Positions 2,700 to 31,285 of a DNA stretch of 64,000 nt are shown here, piece after piece. Each line of letters starts with the position of its first letter. Positions within the stretch are counted from its first letter, which is position 1. The notes under the pieces are model-generated. The model did no database searches. It had not been told where the DNA came from and saw nothing but the letters and a program-made list of their open reading frames with translations. Source of the stretch: Nemertoderma westbladi (taxonomy: Eukaryota > Animalia > Xenacoelomorpha); the NCBI GenBank assembly GCA_032718475.1, contig JAUCBJ010008167.1, forward strand, positions 1-64,000. Direction: 5' to 3'. Both the position numbers and the translations under genes were made by a program.

Positions 2700-4927
2700 T
2701 GTCCGATATGGTTCGGGATACCAAAGTACCTGAGGGGACCACCAGGGAAGGAGTCGAGGAGATTTGTAGATTCCATGGAGATGGGCTGATACACAGTCCT
2801 AGACGACAAAGGGACTGTGGAGGATGATGAGGGCTCGAGAAGGGGGTTGGGAATATCGGCTAGAACCATATTGCTGCTCTTAGCAGCACCGAACGGAGAT
2901 ATCTTTCTATTCGTCCTAGGGACCTATGGAGAGAAGAGCGGGCCGAAATTAAAGCAGTTGCCGAATGCGGTGCAGGAGCTAGCAAGACAGAAAACTACGG
3001 TCAAGTTGGGATCTGTGATACGCAACAACGCGGATAGAATTATTGGACCGGGCACCTCCAATCTTCTGGATATGCAGGTAGTCTACATGGCTATGACGAA
3101 ACCAGAGAGATTGGGATTGGTGGACAATACGGGACATAGTGGAGCCGTGGTGATGGGCCAACTGATGGGACTCATTTTGCCACAAGCCGATGGGGACTGG
3201 AACAAGTTCCGGGAGGAATACTGTGCGGAAATTGCGAACTCGCTCAAGTGAGGAGTGAGACCGGGGAAGGAGGAACTATATCACTTCCGAAAGGGAGTGA
3301 TAAAGATATATCACAAGAGATATATCCTACAGGAGGATTGGATAATGATAGCTTTACTAAACCTATTCATTATGGTGACTATCGGGAGGGAGCCGACGGC
3401 GTTTCTACTATCGGGATCACCACTGAATCACAGGAGAGCCTTTAAGGTGGCCCTAGAAGTTCTTGTAGACCACCCGGGGCTGAAGGGTGAGTCGGTATAT
3501 TACCACACCCGACACCTAGTGGACAGAGAGGTAGATACACCATACAAGCGATGAAGGAAACTGGAGGCGGATAGGGTTGAGGAGGGGAGACTAGATGAGG
3601 TCGCCAGGAGAGAGATAAGGGAGGCAGCAGGAAGAGAGCCGGATATAAGGGGATAGGAGTATCAGTTTGAAGTCTAGGATTTGGATGAGCTGAGGTGGGG
3701 ATCAGAGACCTCAGATGAGTTTCGGCTGGGGGACGAACTGTGTTGCATCGGAGTGGCAAAGAATGCCCATGCCAGCAGGCTCTGAGGGTGACGTTGGAAG
3801 GAAGAGACCGAGGGAGGTAGAAGGGTGAAAGGCTATGGGCAGATACCAGGGCAGAAAGGGACACAGTGGATTAACTGGGCTCCTGTGTTTGGATCCGCTC
3901 CCGGCAGGGAAAGAGGAAGAGGACGAGTCTGTGGCGATGCCACTGATAGAGAGGACTGCATACTCGGCAGGGGAAGAGGAGGACAACGAGTTCAGGGCGA
4001 TGCCGCCAATAGCAAGGATCGGCCACTCGGACACTGACTGGGTGGACGGGAGAGTGATGGCCAGCGGGGGGAGAGCCTTCTGGGACAAACCCCATAAGCG
4101 GACCTGGGAGCTGGCAATGGACTTTGCGGTGAGTACGATCCGGCTGGGCGAGCAACCGGGGACGGCACCATGAGTAGTGTTTGGAAAACGATGCCGAGGG
4201 TGGAGGAGGACATCGATATGGGTAGGGAAGACAACGTCCAGATGTTTACCTACCAGTGGCTCCACAGACCCAGGAGGCCACGTGGACCCAAGGACGACTT
4301 GGGCGGGAGACTATGATACACGGTTGCGATTACTGTGGGAGATTAACCCATCAGCAAAAGAACTGTCTATACCATTACCAGAAGGGGACGGAGTGTCTTT
4401 ACTGCCGCGAGTCTACACACAAGATGGGTGCATGTCCGAGGTTGCACAACAAATGTTCGAAGTGCAAGTTTAGAGGGCACTTTGAGTGCCAGTGCGAGTG
4501 GATGGACAATGAGGAGAAATTCCACAATTTCGAGGAGTGGGCTAACGTCGGAGTCATGACACGACAAAGGATGATGGCCCAGGAGTTCCAGTGGGGTTTC
4601 TTCAACATTAATATAGAAGCCCACCAGCAGATTACCAAGAGGAGACTACCATTCATGGCTGAACATGTGCCGCGTGCGATGAAGAAGATCTTGTGGGACG
4701 CTACCAGAGGGAGACAGGAGGGACACTCAGTGGGACCACCTGGAAAGCGATACCGGGAGTTAATAACACCCGCGCCCAAAGAACCAACAATGGGGCTTGG
4801 TAAGACGGTATCAGCAAGGATGAGTAGCCTCAAGGGTAAACAGGAAGGGAGGAAGCGGCCCAGACAGGATGACGATAGGGGCAAGGAACTTAGATGGTTC
4901 CCAGAGGGTGCGGGAGGAGCAATGTAG
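2700..4927 (+). pseudogene. Element A accessory ORF: DEDDy 3'-5' exonuclease-like domain plus triple zinc knuckle (disrupted)
   Basis: G*YTVLDDKG (ExoI position, 2802-2810), LLAAPNGDIFLF, LPNAVQELARQKTTVKLGSVIRN (ExoII region), RYILQED (ExoIII position); then CDYC..H..C, CLYC..H..C, CSKC..GH..C in ORF 4256..4927. Collinear with the element B accessory ORF. Confidence 0.75.
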
Positions 4928-9854: not shown

Positions 9855-11767
9855 TATTAGAAGAGACAGTAACAATACCTGCAATATCCTACTGTAAAGT
9901 TTGTGAATCAAATCATAAATCCGGCCTTCTCACCAAAACAGTAAACTCTAAGTAAGCGAATATATTGCAGTATCTATCTCTTATAACCGGTGAGGCAGAA
10001 AACAGTCTACGAGCAGACAAACTTCGATAAAACAAAATCCCGCGCAGCGAATCCTAAAATCAGGCTGACTCACTGACGGACTAAGGGGCTCGTATACTTT
10101 GCCGCGGTGTGATTTATATGGTTGGGCTAAAGAGACGCTAGCTAGGTACAGAGGCAGACATTTGGAGATGTCTAACTAGCGGGCAAAGCGCAGTACGGAC
10201 AAAAGTTAATTTTATATATTTTGAGGTGTAAATAATATCTAACGCGCGTGTGTGATTCTGAACAGTCAAAGCAGTTTTGCTCCTTCATATATATAATTAC
10301 TGGGTACGGTGTACATTTTACGAATATTCTAATTTTGTAACTTGTAGGTCCAATACTCACGAATGATAAGGTTCCTTCCCCTCTTGCGTATTTCCAGGAC
10401 TCAAATTCAGGCATAAGGTTAATGCTACGCCCAGAATTCGGCAATTTTAATTTACCAGGCCCCTAATACTAAGAAGAAATGTGTTAGTTTACTACAGTAG
10501 GCGTACGGTTACAAATAGCTATCCTGGCTCTTATCTAGAATTTTAGTCACCTAGGTAGGCTGGGTAACTTCCTATCAGGACGTTGGCGGGGACACGGCAG
10601 ATGTTAGTATATCCCTAATAGCCTCAATTTATTTGCGCCTAGTCGTAAACTGCCCTACCGCCTGAACGGTACAATCCTAATTTAGGTGAAACACAGCAAC
10701 CCTCCTAGCCTACAAGTTCTAATGCAATGGACACCGTTGTACTACAAATAGTCGCAGACGCACCTGTACTTAGCAAGAGTTAGGCGTACAGTTTGCTGCA
10801 CCCTACCAATGTGTATGCTTTGTACCGGTGTGCCTACGTCCTATCTGCGTACTAGTATCTGCCTGCTCTTTCCCTCCCCCCGTAGGAATATGAAGGTCTA
10901 CTGCGGTTTTTTCCTGAATTAAAACAGTACAGTCCCTAAGATGTAATTTTAGGCGTACAGCGTGTCACTACTTCTACCTTTGATCTTTGGTCTTACGCTT
11001 AGGTAGCAAGGCGTCGAACGCTGTCTAACCTTTCAGGCGATGGGCGAATAACTGAGATGGTATTGCGGGTTGTCTCCTGTCTACATTCCCTTGATGTTCC
11101 CGTTCATTGCTGCGGCCCGATCTATAGCCGGCCATCCTGTTCCTAAGTGTGTTCACCGTAGTGAATCATGGTGAAAAGAAAAGCAGGTAGCGGTATTTCT
11201 GAATTTATTGCAGATAATAATACAAAATGTAATCTGAAAACTAATGACAGAATAAACAAATATCAGATAACTCAGAATAATTGTGAGAGATAGATATACT
11301 GAAGATTGAGAAGTGAACTAATGAACGAAATCGCACCTTTTATACCAAATTTGTGCCGCAATCAATCGAGAAAATTCTCGATTGTTCTATAGGTTCTAAC
11401 AGGTTTTTAAAGATAGCTATTGGTCCAGCTAATATATAACTTGCACGACATTGGTTACAATCTAATAACTGCAGTCTCATTGGTTAATCTAGGTACAGAC
11501 AAATGCAATTTAATTTGTAGCGGTCAATTTAAATGAGTTGAAATTCTGTACAAAAAATAAATCGCACTTACTAGGATTCGAACTCAATACCTACTACACA
11601 TATAATTTCCAACGCTCTACCGACTGAGCTACTGAACCACTTGACTAAAGATCGTACAATAGATATAACAAATACAAATGAGGACTCAAAGCAATCTTTT
11701 AGCAAAGTTAATTCGAATAAAAATAAAATTTTGAAAATCCACGGCATTTAGGGAATATAATTCTATA
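9855..11767 (-). repeat. 3' LTR of element B
   Basis: Matches 26767..28679; preceded on the minus strand by purine-rich ATGGAGCGG (PPT, 11768-11776). Confidence 0.95.
11563..11638 (-). other. tRNA-like Pol III A/B-box module in LTR U3 (also 28475..28550 and 31944..32016)
   Basis: GGTTCAGTAGCTCAGTCGGTAGAGCG (A box, D-arm GCTC/GAGC) and GAGTTCGAATCC (B box); acceptor and anticodon stems do not pair. Confidence 0.75.
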
Positions 11768-11899
11768 CCGCTCCATGAAAACAGGATATTATCGTGCATA
11801 AAATATACAGTTTTCACCAATAATCAATCAAACTATAGAATACTTAGGGCGTACTTACATATTTACAATTAAATTTCACAATACTTCCTTTCTACATAA

Positions 11900-12660
11900 T
11901 GATTCGATACAAAATAATTACAAATTCAAACTTTACGTATTTAAGGCTTTACTAAGTAAGTACAATATAAATCTAAATTAAATTCACCAATATAAATCTA
12001 TTGCATCTCAATATTGCATAAATTCAAACAATTACAAATACAAATAAATGAAAATCATAAGAAAGGCTCGCGAGTCTTCCATCTACTATTGCATCTCAAA
12101 TATTGCATAAATTCAAATAATTACAAATACTTTCGTGCCTAAATGTAGATTGCATAAGTTCGGAATAATTACAAATATGAGTCTTTCTAAGCACAAAACT
12201 TTCTAACTATAAACTTTCTAAATACAAAATATAACACTGTACAAATGAAACTATAAGAAAGGCCCACGAGTCTTCCATCTACTCTTACTTTCTATTTCAC
12301 TGTAAATACAAATACTGCTTATAAGATATAAATTGCATAATATTCGGAACAATATAAATTGCATAAGTTCGGAATAATCACAAATATAAAATATAAATTC
12401 TTACAAAATATAAATCTTACTAAATATAAATCTTACTAAATATAGATATAAACTGCATAAGTTTAGAATAATATAAACTCCTTTGCATCTCAAATATGAA
12501 ACATAAATCTTTCAAATATGAGTTCCTTCTAAATATAAACTTTCTAAATTTCAAAAATTCGGAACAATACAAATTGCATAAGTTCAGATAAATATAAAAA
12601 ATATAACTCAAATAAATCACAAATTCACAAGAAAGGCTCACGAGTCTTCCGTCCACCCTT
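11900..12660 (-). repeat. AT-rich degenerate repeats in the 3' UTR of element B
   Basis: Recurring ttgcataaRttc.gaaYaat and aaatataaa units, plus three copies of the aggctcRcgagtcttcc motif. Confidence 0.65.
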
Positions 12661-12670
12661 GCCCTTCCTT

Positions 12671-14380
12671 TTATCGCTTAGTTGATCGAGCCCTGCCGCG
12701 TCCTCGAAAACTGCGCACAGGTGACTTTGCTCGCGATATGGGACTCGTGGGGCGAGTCACTGGTTTCGTTTGGACGTTGAGAGACGGTGCGACTATTTCC
12801 TCGCAAATTCGTCTATTTGGCATCCCAAAACCTCGACCGATTCCTCGTGACCGATCAGTTGTCACTACAGTTGGTAGAACGTCTGGGAACTCGCGAGAAG
12901 CGGACGACGCAGACCCAAGAGCAGCTTGCGCCCCCTTTTGATCAGCTGGTGTGTGTCCCGATCCTCCTGTTGGTTCTCTAGGAAGCGATACCGTATCCCG
13001 AGTAATTCGAATAGTCGGCTCAACTCCCTTGCGTTCTTCTATATTAATAGACTTCTTTAACTGTTGGCCCACTTTCTGGACCCGTATGATCCTACCCTGT
13101 CCGTCCTCCCGAGGGTGACGTGCAGACGGCGCAACCGGAGTGGCTGGTATATTTTTCGCCTCTAGGACCTCCTCTTCCTCGAATACGCTCGCTCGTATAC
13201 GTTTGTGGTAAAACGCGGCTCGGTACGCCCATGCGACGGTTAACCAAGCTCCTTTATTCCGCTTTTCAGTTCGGAAACGATCGAATTCACCATACGTGAT
13301 GCGATTAACGACTTTCTGAAAATTCCACGTGTTTTTGTTATCCGGGTGAATCTGTAATAGATACTCGCGCACTACTCGGAATCCACTGTCGTGGGGCAAA
13401 ATATCGACTACCTCGATAAGTTCGTCATATTGGGGCATAGCGGAGATGTATCCTTCCGACATCATCGTTTGGGGATTTACCGCCCAAAATCCAAGATGCG
13501 CCCTCATCGGAAATCGTCTTCTTTGTGCCGATACATGTTCGTCGGCTAAATCTTCCCACTCATCGAATAATTTTCTCACGAGTTTTACAGATTCGTGTTC
13601 ATAGGGTATGTCTCTCAGTTGGCATTCAGATGCTCGATGCCCTTTTATATTGCAATAAGTACATTGAGCCATAAATCTCCAGCAAGTATAAAAGGTATGA
13701 GACCCTTGATCTCCACACCATCCACAGATTAGCTGAGTCGTAGTAATGTGCTTTCCACTACACTTTGTCATATGATGTCCAGCGACGCCACATTTACCAC
13801 ACATCGTATTGGCAGGGTACCACACTCGTTCATATATAAGATCTCCAATCGGTCGAGCGCTTCCGCCCACACTATAATCGTAATCATCTGGATCTATGGG
13901 TTGGTAGGTTTCTGAGGGTTGTATACAAACTATAGCATCTGTTGCTTCAAGTTGTCGAATCTCCGTCTGAGATTTCTTCGGGAGGTTCCTTTCTATCTCA
14001 AGAAGTTCCTCTAAAGGATCGTCAGTGATCGTAGTAGTTACTTCGAAATCATCACCAAGGTGACCGATAGGAGCGCGCGTCTGCCGTGATTCATCCGTAA
14101 TCTCCACGATACGTTCTCCTTCATAGGGTAACAATGTAAACATAGATGGTCTTTCGATAAGAGATCCCGCACAGCGAAGATATACGTCTCGAAATATACT
14201 AAATCCTGCTCGAGTAAAGGCATTACGCTGAGCGTCGGAGTTGTAGAAGGGTTCAAGGAATCGTCTAAACACGTCGGTATGAATTCTCCCTTCCATGTAG
14301 AACGTATGATCTTCTCCGAGACAAAGTGGATGTCTTTTGAGAGTCCGAGACACAATGTCGGCGATTAGGCAAACATTCAC
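12671..14380 (-). CDS. Accessory protein, C-terminal part: three zinc knuckles and basic low-complexity tail (frameshifted from 14265..16379)
   Basis: CGKCGVAGHHMTKC, CGWCGDQGSHTFYTC, CTYCNIKGHRASEC (~13620-13803), followed by FDEW...QRR...GFW, which matches element A FEEW...RQR...GFF. Confidence 0.8.
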   Translation of the reverse strand: MNVCLIADIVSRTLKRHPLCLGEDHTFYMEGRIHTDVFRRFLEPFYNSDAQRNAFTRAGFSIFRDVYLRCAGSLIERPSMFTLLPYEGERIVEITDESRQTRAPIGHLGDDFEVTTTITDDPLEELLEIERNLPKKSQTEIRQLEATDAIVCIQPSETYQPIDPDDYDYSVGGSARPIGDLIYERVWYPANTMCGKCGVAGHHMTKCSGKHITTTQLICGWCGDQGSHTFYTCWRFMAQCTYCNIKGHRASECQLRDIPYEHESVKLVRKLFDEWEDLADEHVSAQRRRFPMRAHLGFWAVNPQTMMSEGYISAMPQYDELIEVVDILPHDSGFRVVREYLLQIHPDNKNTWNFQKVVNRITYGEFDRFRTEKRNKGAWLTVAWAYRAAFYHKRIRASVFEEEEVLEAKNIPATPVAPSARHPREDGQGRIIRVQKVGQQLKKSINIEERKGVEPTIRITRDTVSLPREPTGGSGHTPADQKGAQAALGSASSASREFPDVLPTVVTTDRSRGIGRGFGMPNRRICEEIVAPSLNVQTKPVTRPTSPISRAKSPVRSFRGRGRARSTKR

Positions 14381-16379
14381 TGACGACTCTTGCTAAATAA
14401 TATTGTAGGACCGCTCTTGGAGGTGACGTAATAGCCCAATACACGCATCCTCTCCATTTAAGCTGTGATTCAAACTCACTCATATCTGGAGTATCACCTT
14501 CTCCATAAGTCTCAATATACTTGGTTCTCTTACTTTCCTTATAATCCCAATTGAATAACAGGTAGGAAATGTATCCAGTTCCAGTCTTCTGAGTATTATA
14601 CTCACGAAAATATCCCTGTTCTATAGACCACAAAATAAGAGGTCGAGTGTCGACGTAAGGTGTCGGTAGTCGGTCATCGCTGTCCGTCATGCCGGCGAAG
14701 TCGCTAATTAAGTCCTCCCTTACTCCTGATCCAATCTTTACAACAGTTTTATCTAAAATCATGTTTCTTACCATCTTCGGTATCATTCTAGCGTCGATAT
14801 TACAAGCTTGGTCCATCTTCTTTACTATGTGTCGCTTTGTATTTGCTGGAGGTATCGGCATTCGTTTGTCGCTCCTCTGTCTACTGAAAACGTGCAGGAC
14901 TCCGTCCGCCGCTCTAATTTGTATAGTCTTAGAAGTCAAACTCTGTTGATGACTGCCGCCCTCGTTATCGTAAAACATGTAACCATTTTCCTGAAACGAT
15001 CTAAACGTTCTATTCCATTCATCCAACAATTCTTCCGAAGGTTGCCAAATCTTCTCTATGTCCTTATCATCTTCGAAACGAATAACCTTACCTCGCCAAT
15101 CCGCGGCAATATCTGTATCCGACTCGAAGGTTCCGGTTCCAATCCATAAACGAATCGTCTTGGTTAAATATCCTTTCAAATTACTCGGAGCTATATCGGC
15201 ACCAGCTCTATCCAGTTCCTTAAAGTCTTGAATATGAGGTGGAACGTTGTACACGACCTTTTGAGTAATATGTCTACGTAAATCATATATCTTACTCATA
15301 TCGCTGAAAACAACTGCAGGAAGAAACTCCAAGTTTGAAATGATTTCTGGATGATCCACGATGGGTATTTCGTACGTCGTATCCTGTCGGACTGGTATAC
15401 TAATAGGAAAATTGAGTGTCGTACTCAATGGTTTCGTAGTTGAAGTACTATATGGTTGCATTTCTCTTGTCCTCTCCGGGGATGCAATCTGTAGTCTCTG
15501 AATAACGTTTTGAGCAAAGTTTATGCTCTCGAAAACTTCCGGTGTCATCTCCTTAGCTGGGGTTTGATCGTGTGACGTCCAATGGTAAGGTAGGCTCGCG
15601 AGTCTTCCGCCCCATTCTTCCATCTCACATTTCTCGAAAGCCTTGTAGGCTCTGTATAGGCTAAGAGCTTCTTTCTTTTTGCGGGTTGACTGATTCGCCT
15701 CGTCCAGCGTAAGTTCAAATACATCGGGTTCAACAACCTTAGGTGGGTAAACGACAGTTTCTCCCGCCTTTGGTCCGGTCATAGCAAATGAATGATATGG
15801 ATTCGATAAAGGATACCCTCCTTCCTGGTAGCGTAGTTGTTGATGGTTCGAACACCTCGCCAGTATCGGTTCGGGATTTTCCTTATTCAAACGCATCGGA
15901 ATCGCATTTCGTTGTTCGCGCATACAAGAACCGCATTGATAATAAAGTTTATAAACTGAAAATGCTTCCTTGGTTTCTCTATCGTCCCCTCGAGTTCGTC
16001 TGTAAAGGTGCATTCCATCGAATTCATCGCGTACCGCGGGCATAGGTTCGTGCGCCTTTAGGTATTGCATGGTATGATACAAACGACTAATTTCAGTATC
16101 GGGGTCTTCGCTAATGTCTCCCGTATCACACAAAGCGTCGTACGGGTAAAGTTCATTGAAGGTTCTGCGCAAACTTTCGATTCTTTCATTTAATGCGTTT
16201 TGTCTTCTCTTTAATACATTCGAGTCATATTTAGTTCTCGCGAGTTTCGCTGTACTTTCTGATAATTCTTTTATACCAAATATAGTGTAGTCCTTGGCTC
16301 CAAATCTTTCGAATGGCGCTGCTGCCTCCTCTTGGATATCATATCCCCATCTCGGCTCTCCTTGTATCCCTTTCTCCAT
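14265..16379 (-). CDS. Accessory protein, N-terminal part: putative CxxC/CxxH finger plus DEDDy 3'-5' exonuclease domain
   Basis: GYMFYDNEG (ExoI D-x-E, 14961-14969), TIQIRAADGVLHVF, IPKMVRNMILDKTVVKIGSGVRED (ExoII; WRN/EXD2/Mut-7-like KxGxGxxxD), YVDT, LQYY. Confidence 0.8.
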   Translation of the reverse strand: MEKGIQGEPRWGYDIQEEAAAPFERFGAKDYTIFGIKELSESTAKLARTKYDSNVLKRRQNALNERIESLRRTFNELYPYDALCDTGDISEDPDTEISRLYHTMQYLKAHEPMPAVRDEFDGMHLYRRTRGDDRETKEAFSVYKLYYQCGSCMREQRNAIPMRLNKENPEPILARCSNHQQLRYQEGGYPLSNPYHSFAMTGPKAGETVVYPPKVVEPDVFELTLDEANQSTRKKKEALSLYRAYKAFEKCEMEEWGGRLASLPYHWTSHDQTPAKEMTPEVFESINFAQNVIQRLQIASPERTREMQPYSTSTTKPLSTTLNFPISIPVRQDTTYEIPIVDHPEIISNLEFLPAVVFSDMSKIYDLRRHITQKVVYNVPPHIQDFKELDRAGADIAPSNLKGYLTKTIRLWIGTGTFESDTDIAADWRGKVIRFEDDKDIEKIWQPSEELLDEWNRTFRSFQENGYMFYDNEGGSHQQSLTSKTIQIRAADGVLHVFSRQRSDKRMPIPPANTKRHIVKKMDQACNIDARMIPKMVRNMILDKTVVKIGSGVREDLISDFAGMTDSDDRLPTPYVDTRPLILWSIEQGYFREYNTQKTGTGYISYLLFNWDYKESKRTKYIETYGEGDTPDMSEFESQLKWRGCVYWAITSPPRAVLQYYLARVVSECLPNRRHCVSDSQKTSTLSRRRSYVLHGRENSYRRV

Positions 16380-17059
16380 AATTAGAGGTGTAGTTACATA
16401 ATCATTACTACTAGAGGGAATACAACAGAGTTTGTAGTTAGTTGTGAGGAGACGTGAGAGTTTCGTCTGCCCTTTGGGCTCGACAACGCTCTAACCTCCT
16501 ACCCATAGCCTAAGATCTAGGGTTTCTTTAATGACACGCTGCTTCTTATCTAAAATTTTTGCCGAAATAAAAACGAATTTGGGCTAAACTGGCTGTGAGT
16601 CTAAAATACTCACTTTTTGATCCCAAACTATTATCAGAAAATAAGCAGTCAAGAATTAGTAATAAATATAGGGGAGTCTATTTTGACGTAACTTATTGAA
16701 ACAAGACCGTGTAAAATTTAATTTTAATTTTAATTAAAATTTAATTAAAATTTTAAGAAAGGCTCGCAAGTCTTCCTCTCTTGTTTCTCTAATTTTAAGT
16801 TCCACCCGACTGTACCCTGAAATCTATTCACTGGAGAAAATTTTAAAAATTTTTCAAATCCAAATGGATTGTCTAAAATTTCGAAATGTCTCAATATTGT
16901 GAGTTCCAAGTAGAATTCCATTTCTTATACCTACAAATCCCGCTCCTATGTGACACATAAGGGTACTACCCTCAATGTTCACATATAAAGACAATGGAAT
17001 TCTACCGCTGTCCTTACTACAGTGTACAGGTACGTGGAAATCTATTTGTAAACTCCTAA

Positions 17060-19588
17060 TTATTTACTAATATTAGGTGGAGATTTGTAATCTCCAGACT
17101 CGTTACGAGTCTCTTCAAGAAGTACGAGACGTTGTGTCGGTCTGTCAACTGTACGACCGTCAATTGTCCGTACCGTAACAGTTCTTGTCACTCCATCCAT
17201 AGATGGATGTGTGGCTAAAATTACACCTGTTATCCAGAAGCGTCTTTTTAGATTCACTTCTGCTAACAGCACGTGATCTCCCGGCTTTAATGCGCGGGTG
17301 TTATTGTACCAGTTTGTTCTGGCAGAAATAGAGTGCAAATAATGGTTTTGCCATATTTCCCAGAATTTGTTAGCTAGTAGTTGCGTGATTTTCCACGCTT
17401 TTCTACCGTAGCTATCGCCTTCTATTGGAATAGAAATAGGCGTCAAAGTTGTCGGTGCCTGCATAAGCAGGTGTGCCGGTGTCAAAGCAAACTGAGATTG
17501 TTTGTCATCGGGTACTAATACTATTGGTCTAGTATTTAGTATTGCCTCGATTTCAACAAACAGTGTTGTCAGTTGGTCGTCTGTCAATATGTGGTTTACT
17601 GGAATGACCTTTGCCATGGCTGTCTTTATAGATCTAATCAATCTCTCCCAGACTCTGCCTCTCCATGGACTATCTGGAGGATTAAACTTCCAAACAATCT
17701 TGTAAGGACGTAGTTCGTTTGAGATTTGATCATGATCTAATTTCTTAAAGGCTCTAGCAATCTCATTTCGAGCACCAACAAAGTTTGTCCCTTGGTCTGA
17801 GTACAAGCATTTCACTAGTCCGCGTCTGGCGATAAATCGCCGCAATGCTAGTATAAACGCGTTGGTGGAAAGATCCATCACACGTTCAATATGAACTGCC
17901 CTACTGGACATATATGTGAAAATCAGTCCCCAGCGTTTTACTAGTATACGTCCACGTTTCGTATGTATGGGACCAAAGCAATCAATTCCAGTCTCTGTAA
18001 AAGGTGGTCTGAATGCTTGAAGTCGTGCTTGTGGAAGTTCACTCATTTCTTGGGTACCTATTCTAGAATGTACCTTTTTACAAATAATACACGTACGTGT
18101 CACTGAACTTATTGCTTTACTGGGTCTAATTAATACAAATCTTGTACGTAAGTAGGAAAGACAGTGGTGTCTTCCAGCGTGTTTCAGATGAAAATGTGCG
18201 TCCAGTATCATTGCACGTTGTAGTTCGTGATGCTGCGGTATTATTATTGGGTACCTAAAGTTTGTGTTAAAGTCAATGTTTTGAAGCCGAGATTTATGAC
18301 AAATTAAGCCATTATAAATTATCGGACTCCAACTCAATATTGGTGACGACTTGATTGGTTGACCTTGATTTATAGATGTGAATTCGCGCGCGAAATATCG
18401 CAGTTGGTAATGGCGAATTAATTTAATCTCACACCTGTCAATCTCAGTCAATGTAAGTCGACGTGTGAAGTCTCGTTTGCCTTTAACGTATTGTACAAAA
18501 CGTACAATCCACGCTAATTTTCGGCAAGCGTTTGTCCAAGAATCTGTTAGGTTTACAATACGGTCGACGTAAGTATTTGTGACGTCATCAGGTAAGTCAA
18601 TGGAGATTTTGGAAGGTTTTGATTTACTAGAAGGGCCCATGGGTCCGCCGGTAGGTATTCCCTTGTTGACTGTTGATCCGTCCGGGTCTACAAGTAATTT
18701 GTCCTTCTTCGTCTTCTTACCTTGATTGTCAGTACTTTGTAAGTCGATCGTTAATGGTGGTTTGAACTCTATGGGGTCAGTGGGTTTCGGTAAACTTATT
18801 TTTCTGCCGATATTAATCCCGGGTCTCACCATAGGTTGCAAGTTTGGTATGTCTCTTGAGCGCAGAGTAACACCTGTATTTACATTAGCGTAGGTACTAC
18901 CCACATCTGTAATACATGAGGTTTCACCGTGCTTATGGTTGCTCAAGTGCGTCAAAATTGGTAGTTTGTCAATACAAGGCCGCTCCAATAGGGAAACTGC
19001 GGCTTTACTGTTAGTGAATACATTACTAATGTCCGGTTGAACATTTTGTGACATGTCTGGTAAAATCTTTCGCGGAACATCCGGCGAAATATCTAGTGAC
19101 GTGTCTGGCAAAACGTCTGGTTGACCGTCTAGTAACGTATCTGGTTGTTTGTCAATAGAAGGCCGCTCCAATAGAGAAACTGCGGCTTTACTATTTGTCA
19201 GTATGTTACTAGTGTCTGGTAGAACATTTTGTGATATGTCTGGCAAAATGTCTGGTTGGCCGTCTAGTAACGTGTCTGTTTGACCGTCTGGTAACGTGTC
19301 TGGTTGACCGTCTGGCGATATGTCTGGTGTAGAAAGGCTCGCAAGTCTTCCGTTCTTGACCTTTGAAGTTATCGCTTTCCATTTCGCCTTCGGTTTTTTC
19401 TTGAGTTTAGCCGCCGTCTTTTTCTTTGCTTTCCCTTTCTTTGGTTTTTTAATTTCCGCGTCTTTTGGGATAGTGTTAGACTTGTTGTCGTATAGTGGCG
19501 GCCAATGTTGTATTGATCCCTGCAAGAACCGTGGTCCGTGCTGCCAAAATTCTTTGTTCTCCGGTTTACAAAATTCCTCAGGCATCAT
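17060..19588 (-). CDS. Bel/Pao pol C-terminus: repeat-rich linker plus integrase
   Basis: HFHLKHAG...CIIC (HHCC), TGIDCFGP, SDQGTNF, WERL (DDE), GPY/F-like tail. Same frame as the upstream ORF across one TAA at 19643-19645 (SIK*DWRHCPGPQNPADIASRG). Confidence 0.95.
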   Translation of the reverse strand: MMPEEFCKPENKEFWQHGPRFLQGSIQHWPPLYDNKSNTIPKDAEIKKPKKGKAKKKTAAKLKKKPKAKWKAITSKVKNGRLASLSTPDISPDGQPDTLPDGQTDTLLDGQPDILPDISQNVLPDTSNILTNSKAAVSLLERPSIDKQPDTLLDGQPDVLPDTSLDISPDVPRKILPDMSQNVQPDISNVFTNSKAAVSLLERPCIDKLPILTHLSNHKHGETSCITDVGSTYANVNTGVTLRSRDIPNLQPMVRPGINIGRKISLPKPTDPIEFKPPLTIDLQSTDNQGKKTKKDKLLVDPDGSTVNKGIPTGGPMGPSSKSKPSKISIDLPDDVTNTYVDRIVNLTDSWTNACRKLAWIVRFVQYVKGKRDFTRRLTLTEIDRCEIKLIRHYQLRYFAREFTSINQGQPIKSSPILSWSPIIYNGLICHKSRLQNIDFNTNFRYPIIIPQHHELQRAMILDAHFHLKHAGRHHCLSYLRTRFVLIRPSKAISSVTRTCIICKKVHSRIGTQEMSELPQARLQAFRPPFTETGIDCFGPIHTKRGRILVKRWGLIFTYMSSRAVHIERVMDLSTNAFILALRRFIARRGLVKCLYSDQGTNFVGARNEIARAFKKLDHDQISNELRPYKIVWKFNPPDSPWRGRVWERLIRSIKTAMAKVIPVNHILTDDQLTTLFVEIEAILNTRPIVLVPDDKQSQFALTPAHLLMQAPTTLTPISIPIEGDSYGRKAWKITQLLANKFWEIWQNHYLHSISARTNWYNNTRALKPGDHVLLAEVNLKRRFWITGVILATHPSMDGVTRTVTVRTIDGRTVDRPTQRLVLLEETRNESGDYKSPPNISK
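18960..19330 (-). repeat. In-frame degenerate repeats (PDTLLDGQ) and duplicated NSKAAVSLLERP in the RNaseH-IN linker
   Basis: Seen in the translation and in DNA (gtctggttgaccgtct units). Confidence 0.8.
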
Positions 19589-19642
19589 TCCTCGCGACGC
19601 AATATCGGCTGGGTTTTGTGGTCCGGGACAATGTCGCCAATC

Positions 19643-22600
19643 TTATTTTATTGAACGGTCTAGAATTTCCGCGCGACGGTTAGCTACGAATGTCTTGAAT
19701 TCAAGTGTGTCGTTGTTTATGTAAAATAAAACCAACGTCGCGTCAGTCCAATAAAATATCTGTAAACTTGACTGTAGTTCTGTCTGTATAAGGTTCACGA
19801 TGGTGGTTGACAGGGCTGCGGCTTGTAGCTCAGCTCGTGGTGTCGTCATATACTTAGTAGGCATTGTTTTTGCCTTAGAAGTAATGAGCGAAACATCGAA
19901 TTCTTCTGAGTCTACTTGTCTGCGCAAGTACGCTGCCACACCAAAGCCGTTGTCACTGGCGTCAGAAAAACAATGTAATTCCAAGTTGTCAGGAAATGTT
20001 GTTTGTAATGGAAAGTAGACTCTGGGTATGGAATAATCCTCTAGCGAAGATAATTCTGCTTCCCAGGTTTTCCATAAGTCCACTTGGTCTGATGAGATCG
20101 GCTCGTCCCATGTCAGTCCATCCTTCCAAATACTGCGCATATAAATGCGGGCTTGCAGTATTATTGGACTGATGAATCCTAATGGATCGAACAATCGTCT
20201 CAATTTTGACAAGCATGATCTCTTTGTCAGTGTGTTTTCTTGACTGTCCAGTCTCACCTTCACTCGAAAGTTGTCCGTGTTTGGGTCCCAAAAGAGCCCC
20301 AACACCTTGGTCGTCGGTAGTGGTTCGAACTCTAGGTCTATGTCACCACCTCCACGCTCAGTCGTTCCGAATGAGTCTACTAATTCGGCACTGTTTGAGG
20401 CGAATTTGGTGAGGTTAAAACCTCCGCCCGCTAAGCAGTCCCGTAATTGATGTGCTACTGTTGTAGCACGTTCTACTGTGTCGCAACTCTGTAAACCGTC
20501 GTCGACGTAAAAGTCACGTTCCACAATCTTAATTATCTCTGGGTCATACATGTGTTTCTGATCCCTAGCGGCTTGCTTTAGGGCGTACATTGTACAGTTT
20601 GGGCTGTCCCTGGCACCGAAAACGCGAACTTGCATTTGGTAAGTCGCCGGTGGTAGACTTAAGTCTCCTTCCGGGTACCAGAGGAACCTCAAACTGTCTC
20701 TGTCTCGCTCTAACGCTCTCACTTGGTGAAACATAGCTTCGACGTCGCAAGTAAAAGCTACTTGACGCTGACGGAAGCGCATAATCACCCCCATAAGATA
20801 ATTATTCATGTTTTGTCCATCCATCAACTCGCTATTGAGGGACATTCCCTCAAACAGAGCCGCACAGTCATTGACTACACGTACTTTGTCTGGTTTGTCG
20901 GGGTGTCTCACGTAGTGATGTGGTAAGTAGTATGTCTGGTCTGTTACTATCTCTGGGTTAGTCATTCGGATAGCGTATCCCTTGGACAAATACGTCTCCA
21001 TCTGAGTGTTGTACTGGAGATGGGCTTTCTCGTCCTTTAATAGACGTTGTCGTATTGAGTGTAGACGTCTTAAAGCTAGTGGATAGTTATTTATGAGTTT
21101 AGGACGTTGGTCACGCCATAGCATCCCTACCTCATAATGTCCGTCCTCCGTCTGGCGGATAGTATCTTCCATGATCCTCAAAGATTGTTTCTCCTGTTCC
21201 GACATACATGGTTCGTAGCTACCAGGTTCAGCTGTATCTTGTTCTAACCACCTGATAGTCTTCTCCGTTAATTCTTTGTCCAATACAGCTTGTTCCACTT
21301 GATGATTTCTCAACGCGTCATCATCGATATCGACGGGCATTGTTGAGGTTATTTGTGTAGGTAGACTCACAAGCCTTCCGGCGTTATCATCTGTCGTCGA
21401 TGGAATCTCTGGCTGACTCGTCTTCTCCCCAAGTTCTAAACTCACCTGGTGGATTAGCTGCTCCTTGTGACTTATCATGCTAGTTACACGTCTGTCATGT
21501 TTTGTCGAATGTAGTGTAGTATGGTCCACGTCGTGTGAAAAGGAATGAATTGAATTTGTAGTTAATAAACTACATGTACTTTGTACATCGTCTTCCTCGT
21601 CACTTATGTCCAGTGTGCGCACAGGCGCTCGAGTATACCACCCTATCGGCGTTCTACAGGCATATGCGTTTCCCACTATGACTGCCGATGGTCTGGTTTC
21701 CCACACTTGATGTAGGTTGAATTGGTCTGTCCCGATCAGCATTGCTACCGATCTATAATTGACAGGACATTCAGGTACACCAAGGTGTCTGAAATACTTA
21801 CGGTCCTCCAAGGATTGTTCTGGGACAGGACCTAGTAGGTTACTAAAGTCCTTGGTGGCCGCAAAAGTCAAATCCTTAAAGGGTAACAAAGACCTCTCCT
21901 TTTCGCTGTGTTGCGATTTTGGAAGAAGAGTGTCTAAGTTTAACTTAACTCGTGTCACTGGTATTGCAAGTTGTCCGTGCATACTACTTACGGTGTAACT
22001 GACGCGCTTACCTTGTCTGAGATCCGTCACGACGTCAGCTATCTGCTCATCCACGTAGCTGTGAGATGAGGCTGAATCCAGGATAGCGTAGATTCTCTTG
22101 CACCCTTTTGTGCCAGTAATCTTAATCGGAATTACGCTGAATCCCTTTAGTTGGTCAGTCGTCAGAAGCACGATCGATGGTTGTTCGTCTCCATCGGAAT
22201 ATACGTCGTCGTCTTCTGACTCTTCGTCCGACGATCCGGATTGTTCTGAGAAACAATCCTTAATATGTGTCACGAAGGTTGGAGTCGTTTTCGATTCTCG
22301 ATTCTTGTAGGCCGTATTACATTTCGCTGCTGCTTCCGGGTGTTCCCTGGCGAAGCGTTTTGTCGGCGTGTGGCTGTCTGTGTGGAGCAGACCGTCGTGG
22401 TTGCGTCCACAGGATGGACAAGTGTCGGTATTTGGGCAATCTTTGCGAACGTGTCCGTGTCGCGTACACCGCCAACAAGAGTCCAATGGCCGTATCTGCA
22501 GCCGTCGTTCTTCCGAGTTTAACTCGCGAAACTGTTGACAACCTCTCAACTTGTGACCGATATACCGCTTGCCTAAATGCTCGCAGTATTGGCAGCCGCT

Positions 22601-24418
22601 GAAGTCGGTACTGAGTTGCTGTCTAGTCTGTTTTATCCCAATGGGCGCAGATACCCTACTACCGTCCGAGAATTGTCGTGTTTCCGTCGGTGTGGCGTAA
22701 GTGGCCGTCTTGGTGGATGTTGTCTGGGGTTTTTGTCGGTTTGAGGATGGCAAGGTGATTCCTTCTGCTACGATGTGCTGGTCAGTGTAGTTGGATCGAG
22801 TTTCTACCACTGCTTCCCTGGATATCAAAAGGTACACATCTTCCAGTTTTAAGAATCCACCCCGCTCTTCCCGCTGGTATTCGATCTTCCTCCACTCCCG
22901 ACGAAGTCGATGGTGGAGTCGTCCTATGATCTTTAATAGGACTGTAGGGGTATTCCCATAGTCAAGTTGTCCAATGGATCTCAAAGTAGTGATAGCGTTC
23001 TTTATTTCGTCAGCCAGTTTCAATAAGTCGACGGGTTTAGTAATAGCCCCTCCCTTACAGAGTTCCTCTATCACTGACCTGGCCATGCTGACTGTACCTC
23101 CGTATATCGAAGTTAAACGATCGTACGCTAGTTCGAAGGCGTCCGGTACACCAACGAAGGTCTCCGCCAAACGTTTAGGTTCTCCCGACAACGTTTGAAG
23201 CAGGTAATTAAACTTCTCCCGTGATGTAAAGGCGCACACGGCGATCTGAGATTCGATATAGTCTACGAAAGTGTGCCAGTGTTTTGAGCTACCGGAAAAC
23301 TTAGGTGGTTGTTGCACCGGTAGTCCTTGTCTAGCTGCGAATTTCGCTATCTCCTCGGCAACGTTCAGAGTTTCGCGTCCTTGGTTGGTAATCTGGTTGA
23401 TGTCCCTTCTTGGCGCTTTTCCCTGATACGAAGTATTGGTCGATGGTATTTGTCTTTGCGGAATCTTTGGGTTTCTATTGTGTTCGAATTCGGAATTTCT
23501 CGGACTGTCGGTGTGAACTTCCTCCAAGCGTTCCTCGATCTGAGCCAACTTGTTAACAACTGGTCGCAGGATGTCGGCGAACTGTTGTGTACTGATTGCA
23601 TCCGTTGGTTGTAACGCCTTCTGTGTTGGTGTATTCTGTGGAGGATTGTCGATAAATGAATTATCCGAACGCTCACGTTTACATTCGTCGGCCGCTCCTG
23701 TTCTAAATACCTCGCGTTCCGGGTAATCCGACTCGCTTGAAGTACTACTGTCGCCTGGATACGGTGGTCGACGTGCTCGTGTCCGTTGCGTCGTCCGAAT
23801 TCTAACGTTTCGCTTTGGAACATCGTCCACTGGTCTCCGTTGTTCGGTAGGCTCACAAGTCTTCCTCGAAGTCGTAGATTGCGATGTAAACTGGTTGAAC
23901 GGTCGCGTATCCACTGGTCTCCGTTGTTCGGTAGGCTCACAAGTCTTCCTCGAAGTCGTAGATTGCGATGTAAACTGGTTGAACGGTCGCGTATCCACTG
24001 GTCTCCGTTGTTCGGTAGGCTCACAAGTCTTCCTCGAAGTCGTAGATTGCGATGTAAACTGGTTGAACGGTGGTCGGACGACAGCTTTTGAATCCAAAGG
24101 CCTTGTAGGCCTAAACGTCATTGGGTATTCGTAGTGCGTAACTGGTTTAGGTGTCAAAGGTGGACTCACCTGTTTTGTCGTTAGTAGTGCAGGTCCAGTC
24201 AACAAACTACTACGATCTGTAATCGGTGGGTTACTTACCTTGACTTTCAAAATAGGCGACGACGTTGCTCTTGACGGTATGAATTTGTCTGGAATAACCA
24301 ACCTGTGTTCCGTCGCACCATGGATAGGAGAAATATCACTACTACCCGCAATCGAAACAGGTTCCTTAGTCATAATTGGTGCAAACATAGGAGTTACTTG
24401 TGGGAATCGTTGACACAA
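19643..24418 (-). CDS. Bel/Pao gag-pol: gag, zinc knuckles, aspartic protease, RT, RNase H
   Basis: PPKFSG..KFNYL (DUF1759-like), CWRCTRHGHVRKDC/CPSCGRNHDGLLH, ILDSAS, YYLPHH..KVRVVND..DVEAMFHQV..FYVDD, LHCFSDAS..PRAELQA..WTDAT. Confidence 0.97.
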   Translation of the reverse strand: MCQRFPQVTPMFAPIMTKEPVSIAGSSDISPIHGATEHRLVIPDKFIPSRATSSPILKVKVSNPPITDRSSLLTGPALLTTKQVSPPLTPKPVTHYEYPMTFRPTRPLDSKAVVRPPFNQFTSQSTTSRKTCEPTEQRRPVDTRPFNQFTSQSTTSRKTCEPTEQRRPVDTRPFNQFTSQSTTSRKTCEPTEQRRPVDDVPKRNVRIRTTQRTRARRPPYPGDSSTSSESDYPEREVFRTGAADECKRERSDNSFIDNPPQNTPTQKALQPTDAISTQQFADILRPVVNKLAQIEERLEEVHTDSPRNSEFEHNRNPKIPQRQIPSTNTSYQGKAPRRDINQITNQGRETLNVAEEIAKFAARQGLPVQQPPKFSGSSKHWHTFVDYIESQIAVCAFTSREKFNYLLQTLSGEPKRLAETFVGVPDAFELAYDRLTSIYGGTVSMARSVIEELCKGGAITKPVDLLKLADEIKNAITTLRSIGQLDYGNTPTVLLKIIGRLHHRLRREWRKIEYQREERGGFLKLEDVYLLISREAVVETRSNYTDQHIVAEGITLPSSNRQKPQTTSTKTATYATPTETRQFSDGSRVSAPIGIKQTRQQLSTDFSGCQYCEHLGKRYIGHKLRGCQQFRELNSEERRLQIRPLDSCWRCTRHGHVRKDCPNTDTCPSCGRNHDGLLHTDSHTPTKRFAREHPEAAAKCNTAYKNRESKTTPTFVTHIKDCFSEQSGSSDEESEDDDVYSDGDEQPSIVLLTTDQLKGFSVIPIKITGTKGCKRIYAILDSASSHSYVDEQIADVVTDLRQGKRVSYTVSSMHGQLAIPVTRVKLNLDTLLPKSQHSEKERSLLPFKDLTFAATKDFSNLLGPVPEQSLEDRKYFRHLGVPECPVNYRSVAMLIGTDQFNLHQVWETRPSAVIVGNAYACRTPIGWYTRAPVRTLDISDEEDDVQSTCSLLTTNSIHSFSHDVDHTTLHSTKHDRRVTSMISHKEQLIHQVSLELGEKTSQPEIPSTTDDNAGRLVSLPTQITSTMPVDIDDDALRNHQVEQAVLDKELTEKTIRWLEQDTAEPGSYEPCMSEQEKQSLRIMEDTIRQTEDGHYEVGMLWRDQRPKLINNYPLALRRLHSIRQRLLKDEKAHLQYNTQMETYLSKGYAIRMTNPEIVTDQTYYLPHHYVRHPDKPDKVRVVNDCAALFEGMSLNSELMDGQNMNNYLMGVIMRFRQRQVAFTCDVEAMFHQVRALERDRDSLRFLWYPEGDLSLPPATYQMQVRVFGARDSPNCTMYALKQAARDQKHMYDPEIIKIVERDFYVDDGLQSCDTVERATTVAHQLRDCLAGGGFNLTKFASNSAELVDSFGTTERGGGDIDLEFEPLPTTKVLGLFWDPNTDNFRVKVRLDSQENTLTKRSCLSKLRRLFDPLGFISPIILQARIYMRSIWKDGLTWDEPISSDQVDLWKTWEAELSSLEDYSIPRVYFPLQTTFPDNLELHCFSDASDNGFGVAAYLRRQVDSEEFDVSLITSKAKTMPTKYMTTPRAELQAAALSTTIVNLIQTELQSSLQIFYWTDATLVLFYINNDTLEFKTFVANRRAEILDRSIK
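23826..24071 (-). repeat. 84-bp in-frame tandem repeat x3 in gag
   Basis: PFNQFTSQSTTSRKTCEPTEQRRPVD x3; period 84. Confidence 0.95.
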
Positions 24419-25650
24419 TCTTTTACTAATTGTCGTTCCCGTCCGGGTGCTCCTACGCTTCCTTCCTTCTTCCGTTCCTGAATTTGGCGATGTCTTACCT
24501 CTATCTGGTCCAAGTCATGTCCGTCTCGAGATCTCATTGATCGATCGCGGGCCTTTTGATCCAGATCTTCCTCGGCGTTCGCTAATTCTCTCGCCTTCTT
24601 CTCGAGTTCGAAATGAAGTTTAGCTGTCTTCTCTCGTTGTTCCGTTTGTTGTCGTTGCGCCTCAAACTCCGCTTGTCGTATAGCGGATTGAGCTTTTATT
24701 TGCCGTGTTTTCATTTCGGCCCGTGCTTCCGAAACTAACCTTTCTCGCTTTAATTCTGCCGTTTGTCGCTCTAATTCTGCCGCTGCCGTTTGTCGCTCTA
24801 ATTCTGCCGCTGCCGTTTGTCGCTCTAATTCTGCCGCTGCGTTTCGTTGCGCTAAATCAGCCGCTGCCGTTCGTTGGGCAATGTCTACCTCTAACCTTTC
24901 TACTTCAGCTGCTTCTAATTCAGCTTGTTCCTGTAGATGAGAGATTCTCGCTACGTTCGCAACGCGTAGCTTCTCTTCCTCTACTGCTGCCTGCATCACT
25001 AGAAGTTGAGCTTGTTCCTCCATTTCTCGTCGTTGTCGGTAGAATTCTTGCTGTTGTCGAGCAACTTCTGACGTGACCATACTTCCCTCGCCGATTTCGC
25101 TACGAATACTTACCAACGATTGATTTAGTATTCCTGGTACTAGTTCGATTTGTGCGAGTGAAGTTTCCCTCGTATATTCCGGCACGGTTTCCAAATCGCC
25201 GACGTCTTCGCCGCACATACGTAAGTGGTCCGTCAGATGTTTCAATTGTCCATCTAGTCGGTACAGTTCCTGTTCTTCCTCGGGCTGCAATAATTCGTCC
25301 GAAACTGACTCACCTAACAACTGGTCCGCTTGTTCCTGTTGTATCTGCCTAATCGTCGACTTAAACTGAATCAGTTTCTCTCTAGCGATCATTAGTTTCT
25401 CGAGGATTCTAAGTTGTGTGTCCATATCCTGTCTCTGTCTAGCTAGATCTTGTAGACTGATAAGGTTATCTACGGACTTATGTACTCTACTTTGTACTCT
25501 AACCTGGAGGGTGTAGAACTCAAACCGAGACATCGGAGCGGTCAACTCGTCTAATATGCGTTGGCCTTCTCCAATACTCCTGGTAATATGCGCCATGTAA
25601 CCGCCGACGCTTCTAACCACACTCTCCTGGCTTCCTGCTGAACTTACCAT
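24394..25650 (-). CDS. gag N-terminal coiled-coil region (frameshifted relative to the main gag-pol ORF)
   Basis: E/Q/R/A-rich helical 418 aa including 27-bp TAAAELERQ repeats (~24745-24870). Overlaps the next ORF in the -1 frame. Confidence 0.8.
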   Translation of the reverse strand: MVSSAGSQESVVRSVGGYMAHITRSIGEGQRILDELTAPMSRFEFYTLQVRVQSRVHKSVDNLISLQDLARQRQDMDTQLRILEKLMIAREKLIQFKSTIRQIQQEQADQLLGESVSDELLQPEEEQELYRLDGQLKHLTDHLRMCGEDVGDLETVPEYTRETSLAQIELVPGILNQSLVSIRSEIGEGSMVTSEVARQQQEFYRQRREMEEQAQLLVMQAAVEEEKLRVANVARISHLQEQAELEAAEVERLEVDIAQRTAAADLAQRNAAAELERQTAAAELERQTAAAELERQTAELKRERLVSEARAEMKTRQIKAQSAIRQAEFEAQRQQTEQREKTAKLHFELEKKARELANAEEDLDQKARDRSMRSRDGHDLDQIEVRHRQIQERKKEGSVGAPGRERQLVKDCVNDSHK

Positions 25651-26766
25651 GTCCGTTTCCCTGTATCTAGGTTGCGGAACAGTTAGAAAGTCCTCGGTCC
25701 TGCCGTCGCCTCGTACTACGGCATCCGGTACTCCCGTTGGATGTACTGGTGACGCACACGGTGTAGGTTCGGTAGGCTCGCGAGTCTTCCCCTGTAGATC
25801 TTCCGCTGCTGACTAATCCGCGTCACATGAGTCATAGTCGGTAGGTGTATTCTTCGTATAGTCTTGTTTGTCACTCATTTCGGTAGTTGTAAGTCAAGTA
25901 AAGTGAGTGTCAAAGTATCAAACTTACCGTATTTTATCTAAACGGTACTAATTACAGTCATATAAAATTAGCCTACCGGCCGATTTTATAGCAGATGGAT
26001 AAAATTAGCCTAAACGGCCAATTTTACAGCAAATAAATGTCACGGTATAAGTATATAATAAAATTAGCCTAGCGGCCAATTTTATAACAAATAAATCGGA
26101 TAACGATATGCGTTATCAAAAGGTAAATAAAATACAATAATACGGACTAATTCAGCAATGAACAAAGAAATCGTACGGAATGCATAAATACTTGAGACAG
26201 TGGAACCCACAATAATTTTAACTAATACGGTAATGCCTAACTTATGTATGCAACTTTTCGAATTCACCCACTCCAATAATTCTCCAGAAAAACAGATTCC
26301 CAGATACAAACCGGACGTGAACCTTTCCGTTTTTAACGTTGCGGACGAAGCGCGATTTTCCCAACCAAAGTTGTTGAGTTATCTATCTCCCAAACTTGCT
26401 AAACACGGTCTTGCTCCCGTTACAGTCTAGAAATGAGTTCTGAATCCTGAAAAACAAAAGAGTTAGGTTTTACTTTTACGAAAATTTTTGTACCGGTACA
26501 ATATGGTATTTAAACCCTTTTAAACACCGGTATTCAATTCCAAAAAATATTTTACACGCGGTTCAAATCAAATTTTATTTCAAAAAAAAATTAGCACTTA
26601 GCTAATCAAATATAAATTTTTACCTCAAAATACAAAATTTTCAAATAACTTTAGTCCTACCGAACCGTAGTTCAGTAAAACATATTCCTACTATTTTAGG
26701 AAATATGTTAAATAATACCATATTCCTACTATTATAGGAAATATGTTAAAATAATCATATTCCTAC

Positions 26767-31010: not shown

Positions 31011-31285
31011 CAATAATATCTGTCCACTCTGCCTCCCACCATCGCCAACCAATAATATCTGTCCACTCTGCCTCCCACCATCATCGCCAACCAATAATAT
31101 CTGTCCACTCTGCCTCCCACCATCGCCAACCAATAATATCTGTCCACTCTGCCTCCCACCATCGCCAACCAATAATATCTGTCCACTCTGCCTCCCACCA
31201 TCACCAACCAATAATATCTGTCCACTCTGCCTCCCACCATCGCCAACCAATAATATCTGTCCACTCTGCCTCCCACCATCGCCAA
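31011..31285. repeat. 39-bp minisatellite, ~7 copies
   Basis: Unit ccaataatatctgtccactctgcctcccaccatcgccaa, head-to-tail with no spacers. Confidence 0.95.

Follow-up and report, generated by a model that had tools for sequence, protein, structure and literature searches.

Element B and its third gene

The window analysed here is a stretch of 64,000 nucleotides from Nemertoderma westbladi (GenBank assembly GCA_032718475.1, contig JAUCBJ010008167.1, positions 1 to 64,000 of the forward strand). It contains a full-length retrotransposon with long terminal repeats (LTRs), designated element B, which carries a third gene (open reading frame 3, ORF3) downstream of pol. ORF3 encodes a DEDDy-like exonuclease domain and three zinc knuckles, and a tentative role for it in trimming the element's own replication intermediates is developed below. 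Element B comprises the following features:

9855..28679, minus strand: element B, full-length Bel/Pao-type LTR retrotransposon of 18,825 bp, recognised by Pfam domains and its LTR pair
26767..28679, minus strand: 5' LTR, 1,913 bp, with AATAAA at LTR position 1135
24394..25878, minus strand: 5' gag frame, interrupted in frame by a stop at 25813-25815
17060..24514, minus strand: gag-pol, with DUF1759, triple Cys-His box, protease, reverse transcriptase (RT), RNase H, integrase and DUF5641
16411..16441, minus strand: predicted splice acceptor with CTAAC branch, pyrimidine tract and TAG, its end 32 nt 5' of the ORF3 ATG
15111..16379, minus strand: ORF3 N-terminal region, 423 residues with no recognised domain and one CxxC...CxxH motif
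14394..15110, minus strand: ORF3 DEDDy-like exonuclease domain, with D471 and E473 (ExoI) and D556 (ExoII); ExoIII is cut by the frame break
14265..14392, minus strand: overlap of the two ORF3 frames, containing this copy's frame break, from frame comparison
13622..13801, minus strand: three CCHC zinc knuckles in the second ORF3 frame, from sequence motifs and profile matches of the knuckle region
11768..11776, minus strand: weak polypurine tract (PPT), a short purine-rich tract 5' of the 3' LTR
9855..11767, minus strand: 3' LTR, from comparison of the LTR pair

Element B is flanked by a 5-bp target-site duplication (9850-9854 = 28680-28684), its LTRs differ at 11 positions over 1,913 bp (99.4% identity), and it is a young, recently inserted copy. 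Pfam matches were obtained for DUF1759, Peptidase_A17 and DUF5641, with Integrase_H2C2 slightly below its cut-off. The pol gene has the order protease, RT, RNase H, integrase, with the motifs LDSAS (protease), YVDD (RT), FSDAS and DD(49)E (integrase). The triple Cys-His box, protease, YVDD, FSDAS and DD(49)E agree with the Pao hallmarks of PMC554778. A Bel/Pao host, as proposed in a first-pass annotation of this DNA, is thus borne out by Pfam domains and pol hallmarks. Gag and Pol domain content and order are also those of the Belpaoviridae in the ICTV profile (PMC8742986); however, members of that family measure 4.2-10 kb with LTRs of 0.2-1.2 kb, whereas element B (18.8 kb, 1.9-kb LTRs) lies outside both ranges and is about twice the upper size. 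Furthermore, the family has an 18-nt primer site matching tRNA-Arg or tRNA-Gly, which element B lacks, and its third gene is env-like, not nuclease-like (PMC8742986). Element B is filed, by its predicted proteins, as Bel/Pao-type and not as a typical semotivirus.

Two in-frame repeats on the minus strand contribute to the large size, namely a tandem repeat in gag (23826-24077, 3 x 84 bp) and acidic 8-residue units between RNase H and integrase (18959-19330). None of the LTRs in the window begins with TG (element B, TA...TA; a solo LTR, TA...CA; element C, TT...CA), and a purine tract ending in CGG precedes the 3' LTR in both element B and element C. Gag and pol change frame near 24450. The copy is dead: gag (25813) and pol (19643-19645) contain in-frame stops, and the reading frame of ORF3 is broken. 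Judged by the LTR divergence, ~36 coding substitutions and 1.8 stops would have arisen since insertion, which agrees with decay of the inserted copy.

ORF3 is read from two minus-strand frames (16490-14265 and 14392-12671), with an ATG at 16379 and the stop at 12671, and joining them gives 663 + 573 = ~1,236 residues, in line with the sense ORF of about 1230 residues that had been predicted after repair of one frameshift. All the motifs named in that prediction were found in place on the minus strand of element B (residues counted from the ATG: FYDNEG 469, IQIRAADG 486, IPKMV 533, KIGSGVRED 548, YVDTR 575 and LQYY 658). C-terminal to the knuckles lie a motif common to element A and a basic, proline-rich tail that runs to the stop. 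Hydropathy peaked at 1.07 across all 19-residue windows, so ORF3 has no transmembrane segment, consistent with the earlier view that it is not env-like. The CxxC...CxxH motif of the N-terminal region (15850-15935, minus strand) is a possible additional zinc site.

It is plausible that ORF3 is expressed from a spliced sub-genomic RNA. Acceptor-type sites occur in element B at 3 per 15 kb (0.9 expected), and 1.4% of local shuffles yield one at the position 5' of the ORF3 ATG. A GTAAGT at 25922-25927 (minus strand), 50 nt 5' of the gag ATG, is a candidate donor for the ORF3 message, and a second strong acceptor lies in the 5' leader (26447-26466, minus strand).

ORF3 resembles WRN-type DEDDy exonucleases and has diverged homologues

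Related sequences occur in two further elements, and a sister family has left a solo LTR:

2700..3365, plus strand: element A, decayed exonuclease homologue, with ExoI D-D-E, no ExoII Asp, and Y-x-x-x-E-D at the ExoIII position
3423..3587, plus strand: element A, segment resembling the integrase C-terminus, directly after the exonuclease in the same frame
4226..4927, plus strand: element A, three CCHC knuckles plus, downstream of them, the motif common to B, from alignment to B
43156..48952, plus strand: element C, non-autonomous, 5.8 kb, with LTRs of ~957 bp (935 of 955 aligned bases identical) and a 5-bp target-site duplication
44404-44532, plus strand: element C, short pol remnant, from sequence comparison
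46393..46910, plus strand: element C, exonuclease homologue in two frames, with ExoI Y-D-N-E-D and the ExoII Asp present
31815..33675, plus strand: solo LTR, 85% identical to the element B LTR, from a sister family, with its own 5-bp target-site duplication

When the ORF3 domain of element B was compared by features in the ESM Atlas, a cosine of 0.94 was obtained with 180 of 256 features shared, and 25 of 30 matches carried PF01612. The best cluster was 'Werner syndrome-like exonuclease', in which 38% of members bear PF01612 (11-38% across the clusters shown). The element A domain, only 21% identical to that of B, gave 0.91 with 141-149 features, and again 25 of 30 matches with PF01612. Among the three copies (21-36% identical), the conserved columns are the ExoI D-x-E, aligned in all three (D471/E473 in B), followed by an LP...K-x-G...D stretch. 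The ExoII Asp after the K-x-G strand is present in B (D556) and C and absent from the decayed A; at the ExoIII Y-x-x-x-D position B has its frame break, A has Y-x-x-x-E-D, and no counterpart was identified in C. With WRN-exo, EXD2, Mut-7 and plant WEX (PF01612), which are its Atlas neighbours, ORF3 shares the order and spacing of ExoI, the two next strands and the LP...K-x-G...D ExoII stretch; it differs from them in falling under every profile cut-off and in having insertions before ExoII and before ExoIII. From the motifs and language-model features together, the domain very probably has the DEDDy fold.

Several results weigh against this identification and against the role proposed for ORF3 below. 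The domain had no Pfam match at E 0.1 or E 10, and for that reason it is called DEDDy-like. A profile search of the PDB returned four weak matches, of which only EXD2 (E 1.5) is a DEDDy protein, and alignment by hhalign to nine bacterial DEDDy domains (RNase D, NrnC-like, PolA) gave E 0.14, with 4 of 60 shuffles doing as well. AlphaFold models were unusable (predicted local distance difference test scores of 30 and 38), such that structure does not confirm the fold and fold searches on the models weigh neither way. The fourth catalytic acid, at ExoIII, is unreadable in B, and the ExoII Asp is missing in A. A search of 1.84 billion representative sequences gave one match, which was false. The earlier call of a DEDDy 3'-5' exonuclease with knuckles therefore stands on motifs and language-model features near PF01612, but Pfam, HMMER and AlphaFold supplied neither a profile score nor a structure; likewise, the Tyr assigned to ExoIII is present in LQYY, but the break falls where its acid would be read.

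Convergent motifs in some other accessory protein would explain the lack of a significant hidden Markov model or structural match, and 4-10% of shuffled proteins do score as high as 0.9 in the Atlas. This explanation is nevertheless highly improbable, because two divergent copies (A and B) point to the same family independently, the columns conserved among A, B and C are ExoI and ExoII in the correct order, and in the hhalign alignment the ExoII stretch matches RNase D in register.

Both exonuclease pieces of element C aligned to B better than any of 500 shuffles each, and a B+A profile detected C at E 1e-4. For element A, the knuckle region was equally clear (0 of 500 shuffles as good), whereas the exonuclease core was marginal (2 of 500; E 0.08 with a B+C profile). 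Thus, of the collinear, diverged homologues that had been reported in A and C, the C domain and the A knuckles are significant, but C has no zinc knuckles.

Element A has 10 stops in 500 codons, no longer has RT and retains little of integrase (a match to residues 689-737 only). Its segment at 3423-3587 aligns without gaps over 55 residues to the B integrase C-terminus (score 68; shuffles 24 +/- 4; 0 of 500 as good) and was the best non-self match among 2,130 chunks (runner-up 45); Pfam DUF5641 gave no score for it. Because this integrase-like segment follows the nuclease in frame, the A nuclease did not simply lie 3' of pol; it was probably once inside Pol, or next to a duplicated integrase tail. 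The homologue described earlier as downstream of pol remnants in A is hence present, although its core is marginal by alignment, its ExoII Asp is absent and its position is not the one supposed.

The ORF3 knuckle region gave weak matches to TbRND, the RNase D of Trypanosoma brucei (7C45, E 0.007), Air2, HIV nucleocapsid (NC) and Lin28; RSC8 ranked ahead of TbRND and was taken as a chance match. TbRND (PMC7797062; PDB 7C42, 7C45) resembles ORF3 in placing CCHC knuckles after a DEDDy exonuclease, and in its solved structure the fingers supply RNA binding and boost trimming. It is, however, a cellular enzyme that trims guide RNAs, with four fingers directly after the nuclease, whereas ORF3 belongs to a mobile gene and has three knuckles ~200 residues away.

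ORF3 is conserved by purifying selection

Five of the nine public sequencing runs listed contain the stretch (one may be the window's source), and four were compared over ORF3. The variants used were the best-supported 40 of 195 for ORF3 (39 of them inside it) and the best-supported 40 of 67 for the nuclease region; the two sets overlap and are not random. Among the former, 19 of 23 variants in the first frame were silent (31% expected; ratio ~0.10), as were 10 of 16 in the second frame (ratio ~0.27). Among the latter, 24 of 40 were silent (26% expected), comprising 17 of 25 in the nuclease core (25% expected) and 7 of 15 in the linker, which is not significant. None of the 16 replacements in the nuclease set fell at D471, E473 or D556, and no stop variant was seen. 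Since variants are mostly silent, ORF3 is under purifying selection as judged from these sequence comparisons, and the proposal that it is an old module is supported, with dN/dS-type ratios that are not near 1.

These data also bear on whether the domain is active. DEDD folds that are catalytically dead serve as binding modules in EXD1 and Egalitarian, and ORF3 could likewise bind RNA or protein and serve to transport RNA or to assemble particles. The unreadable ExoIII acid of B, and the Glu/Asp at shifted spacing and missing ExoII Asp of A, would suit such a module, and inactive DEDD derivatives in piRNA (PIWI-interacting RNA) biogenesis are mentioned in PMC5408684. Conversely, D-x-E is kept in all three copies despite their divergence and the ExoII Asp in two, the variant within the D556 codon is silent, and A, with its many stops, is a decayed copy. 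A dead fold is accordingly quite unlikely, and there is good reason to expect that intact ORF3 copies are catalytically competent.

At the frame break, contigs of three DNA runs (X1, X3 and X4) show a small length difference from the window, which accounts for all of the depth in X3 and X4 and a third or more in X1. Because these contigs differ and no slippery site was found at the break, the break is likely a defect either of this copy or of its assembly. The element B family is abundant in the three DNA runs, all of which also contain out-of-frame joints that delete the ORF3 N-terminal region and nuclease; contig depth in X4 is greater 3' of these joints, although depth is not copy number.

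Element B carries a self-priming signature

Three features concern the start of reverse transcription:

27794..27805, minus strand: predicted self-primer in the 5' LTR (LTR 875-886), a 12/12 complement of the bases after the LTR
10882-10893, minus strand: self-primer site in the 3' LTR, matching the 5' LTR site
26680..26766, minus strand: primer-binding site (26755-26766, adjoining the LTR) and two 11/12 tandem copies, without tRNA character

The primer-binding site of element B has no TGG start, and its bases complement the element's own LTR rather than a tRNA. Directly after the 5' LTR, at offset 0, the first 12 bases are perfectly complementary to LTR 875-886. Among the 14,987 internal 12-mers, this one, at the LTR edge, is alone in having a complement within the LTR; it is contained in 5 of 20,000 shuffles. 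The self-primer site starts on an initiator-like YYANWYY motif, 260 nt 5' of AATAAA, and the solo LTR keeps both AATAAA and 11 of the 12 self-primer bases. The published criterion for self-priming asks for at least 10 bp complementary to the LTR, starting 0-5 bp after the 5' LTR (PMC6317226); element B has 12 bp at offset 0. In Tf1, the first 11 RNA bases pair with the primer site and RNase H cuts (PMC7175516). Element B likely starts reverse transcription with its own RNA in the manner of Tf1, judging from this complementarity.

Like element B, Tf1/sushi, Tcn1 and TAR have no tRNA site, and the bases after their 5' LTRs complement the LTR (PMC7175516, PMC6317226); these, however, are Ty3/gypsy or copia elements, whereas in element B the loop would be ~1 kb and the primer site is triplicated. 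No case of self-priming in Bel/Pao was found in a literature search that included passages of PMC3601003 and PMC5443660. The triplication at 26680-26766 consists of 37-38 bp units, each of which places the primer site after a pentamer like the LTR end and can form a hairpin hiding it. Immediately after the predicted self-primer comes a G-rich purine run resembling a PPT (27778-27793, minus strand), which is kept in the solo LTR.

A possible role in trimming replication intermediates

The reading that we favour, held tentatively and at somewhat less than an even chance, is that ORF3 is a WRN-type DEDDy 3'-5' exonuclease, tethered by its knuckles, that trims element B's own replication intermediates in the particle. 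ORF3 would be made from spliced sub-genomic RNA, as env genes are, and its knuckles would bind the element's RNA and deliver the protein to the particle. Transcription would begin near LTR position 877, and the leading 10-12 bases of the RNA would pair with the primer site in the manner of Tf1. Once a cut had been made, or if a short 5' RNA served as donor, the exonuclease would digest the unpaired 3' tail as far as the duplex, and RT would extend the resulting 3'-OH. Complementary DNA (cDNA) ends and the PPT primer are equally possible substrates in the cycle, and the self-primer itself takes about half of the likelihood given to replication trimming. Because priming from its own RNA would need a flush 3'-OH, and because the A domain appears linked to Pol, such trimming is the simplest use for the enzyme.

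To the search and motif results above must be added that the link between enzyme and primer is their co-occurrence in one element only, and that Tf1 makes its primer by RNase H alone (PMC7175516), so the known case needs no exonuclease. The predicted leader fold is ambiguous: pairing of the 5' end with the first primer site reaches 0.85-1.0 only for RNA that stops 12 nt beyond the LTR; with 40 nt downstream this falls to 0.35 and with 130 nt to 0.1, where the other copies take over. Elements A and C have no readable primer site, and the exonuclease-deleted derivatives in all three DNA runs indicate that the exonuclease is dispensable in cis. The fuller scenario, in which a giant Bel/Pao lineage swapped tRNA priming for self-priming together with a knuckle-tethered DEDDy exonuclease that matures the primer (a separate gene in B, within Pol in A), is unlikely.

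A DNA-directed role in cDNA proofreading, or in trimming ends before integration, comparable to the action of WRN exonuclease on recessed DNA ends, is suggested by the WRN-like nearest clusters, the integrase-linked position in A and the TA...TA ends of B, which are non-canonical. This role is decidedly unlikely, given that three nucleocapsid-like knuckles point to single-stranded RNA and that variants are mostly transitions.

WRN-type relatives, namely Mut-7/Nibbler and plant WEX, act in small-RNA pathways. The first-pass annotation had offered either counter-silencing or end-trimming as the function of ORF3, and the same two functional guesses for a DEDDy ORF3 appear in PMC5408684, which also raises mut-7. 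In counter-defence, the ORF3 protein would degrade or over-trim host piRNAs, small interfering RNAs (siRNAs) or their precursors in the cytoplasm and so protect the family in trans. A separately expressed gene, spared by the deletion derivatives, suits such a shared function, and so does the abundance of the family. However, the core is under strong purifying selection with no fast change (within-family variants only), unlike an arms race, and the in-frame integrase-like segment of A suggests a role in the particle. Counter-defence, the strongest of the competing readings, is somewhat unlikely; nothing found points specifically to piRNA or siRNA, whereas the self-priming signature and the integrase link in A favour the replication half of the earlier proposal.

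Relation to known third genes

DEDDy ORF3s have been known since 2017 from the rotifer LTR elements Juno and Vesta and from Athena/Terminon retroelements (PMC5408684), as echoed in PMC6431247 and PMC5718144. As in element B, the Juno, Vesta and Athena gene is a third sense ORF 3' of pol, DEDDy-type and without a transmembrane segment, and its function is predicted only. The rotifer hosts are not Bel/Pao elements, whereas element B is one by its pol domains; the comparison is by description, none of the sequence searches having returned a Juno, Vesta or Athena DEDDy ORF. The rotifer proteins are RNase D-like with DEED (PMC5408684), whereas the element B protein has WRN-like nearest clusters, ~1,236 residues and three CCHC knuckles. 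Resequencing of rotifer env and GDSL ORF3s gave mostly neutral variation (PMC5408684), in contrast to the evident selection on the ORF3 of element B.

A DEDDy third gene in Bel/Pao was not found in a literature search, which may have missed the slash spelling and lay outside Repbase, GyDB and supplements; the word 'exonuclease' is missing from the main text of PMC3118150, PMC2774666 and PMC13524379. The possible novelty noted earlier is thus reduced by the rotifer precedent for LTR retrotransposons, but no Bel/Pao case came to light. Malik et al. (2000) may have reported an exonuclease in a Cer element of nematodes; if so, the novelty would be smaller. What is new in element B is a self-priming signature beside a selected, WRN-type third gene, in a superfamily different from the rotifer case, and in the literature searched a primer-maturation exonuclease as a dedicated priming factor is not described for any LTR retroelement. 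Hardly any work exists on accessory enzymes in LTR retrotransposons, the published rotifer DEDDy case came without evidence of selection or function, and the self-priming signature beside ORF3 supplies a concrete candidate substrate. If ORF3 is a primer-trimming factor, the reverse-transcription cycle would gain a further step; if it is a small-RNA nuclease, it would be a rare transposon-encoded silencing suppressor in animals.

Other features of the window

Element C is inserted in the (ACT)n tail of an RTE-like long interspersed nuclear element (LINE) at 48953-50046. The 300 bp after its 5' LTR (44112-44411) copy the DNA flanking its 3' LTR (LINE tail) and replace the primer site. Fragmented, partly duplicated copies of C-type LTRs (~86% identical), interrupted by other insertions, lie at 59519-62634 (plus strand). 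A single-exon ORF of 542 residues (55943-57571, plus strand) has weak leucine-rich repeat (LRR) matches and is probably a host or captured F-box/LRR-like gene. A cysteine-rich ORF of 233 residues (34848-35549, plus strand) with hydrophobic ends and no Pfam match resembles a secreted protein anchored by glycosylphosphatidylinositol, and minisatellites are present at 58590-59240 (52-bp units) and 30997-31290 (39-bp units).

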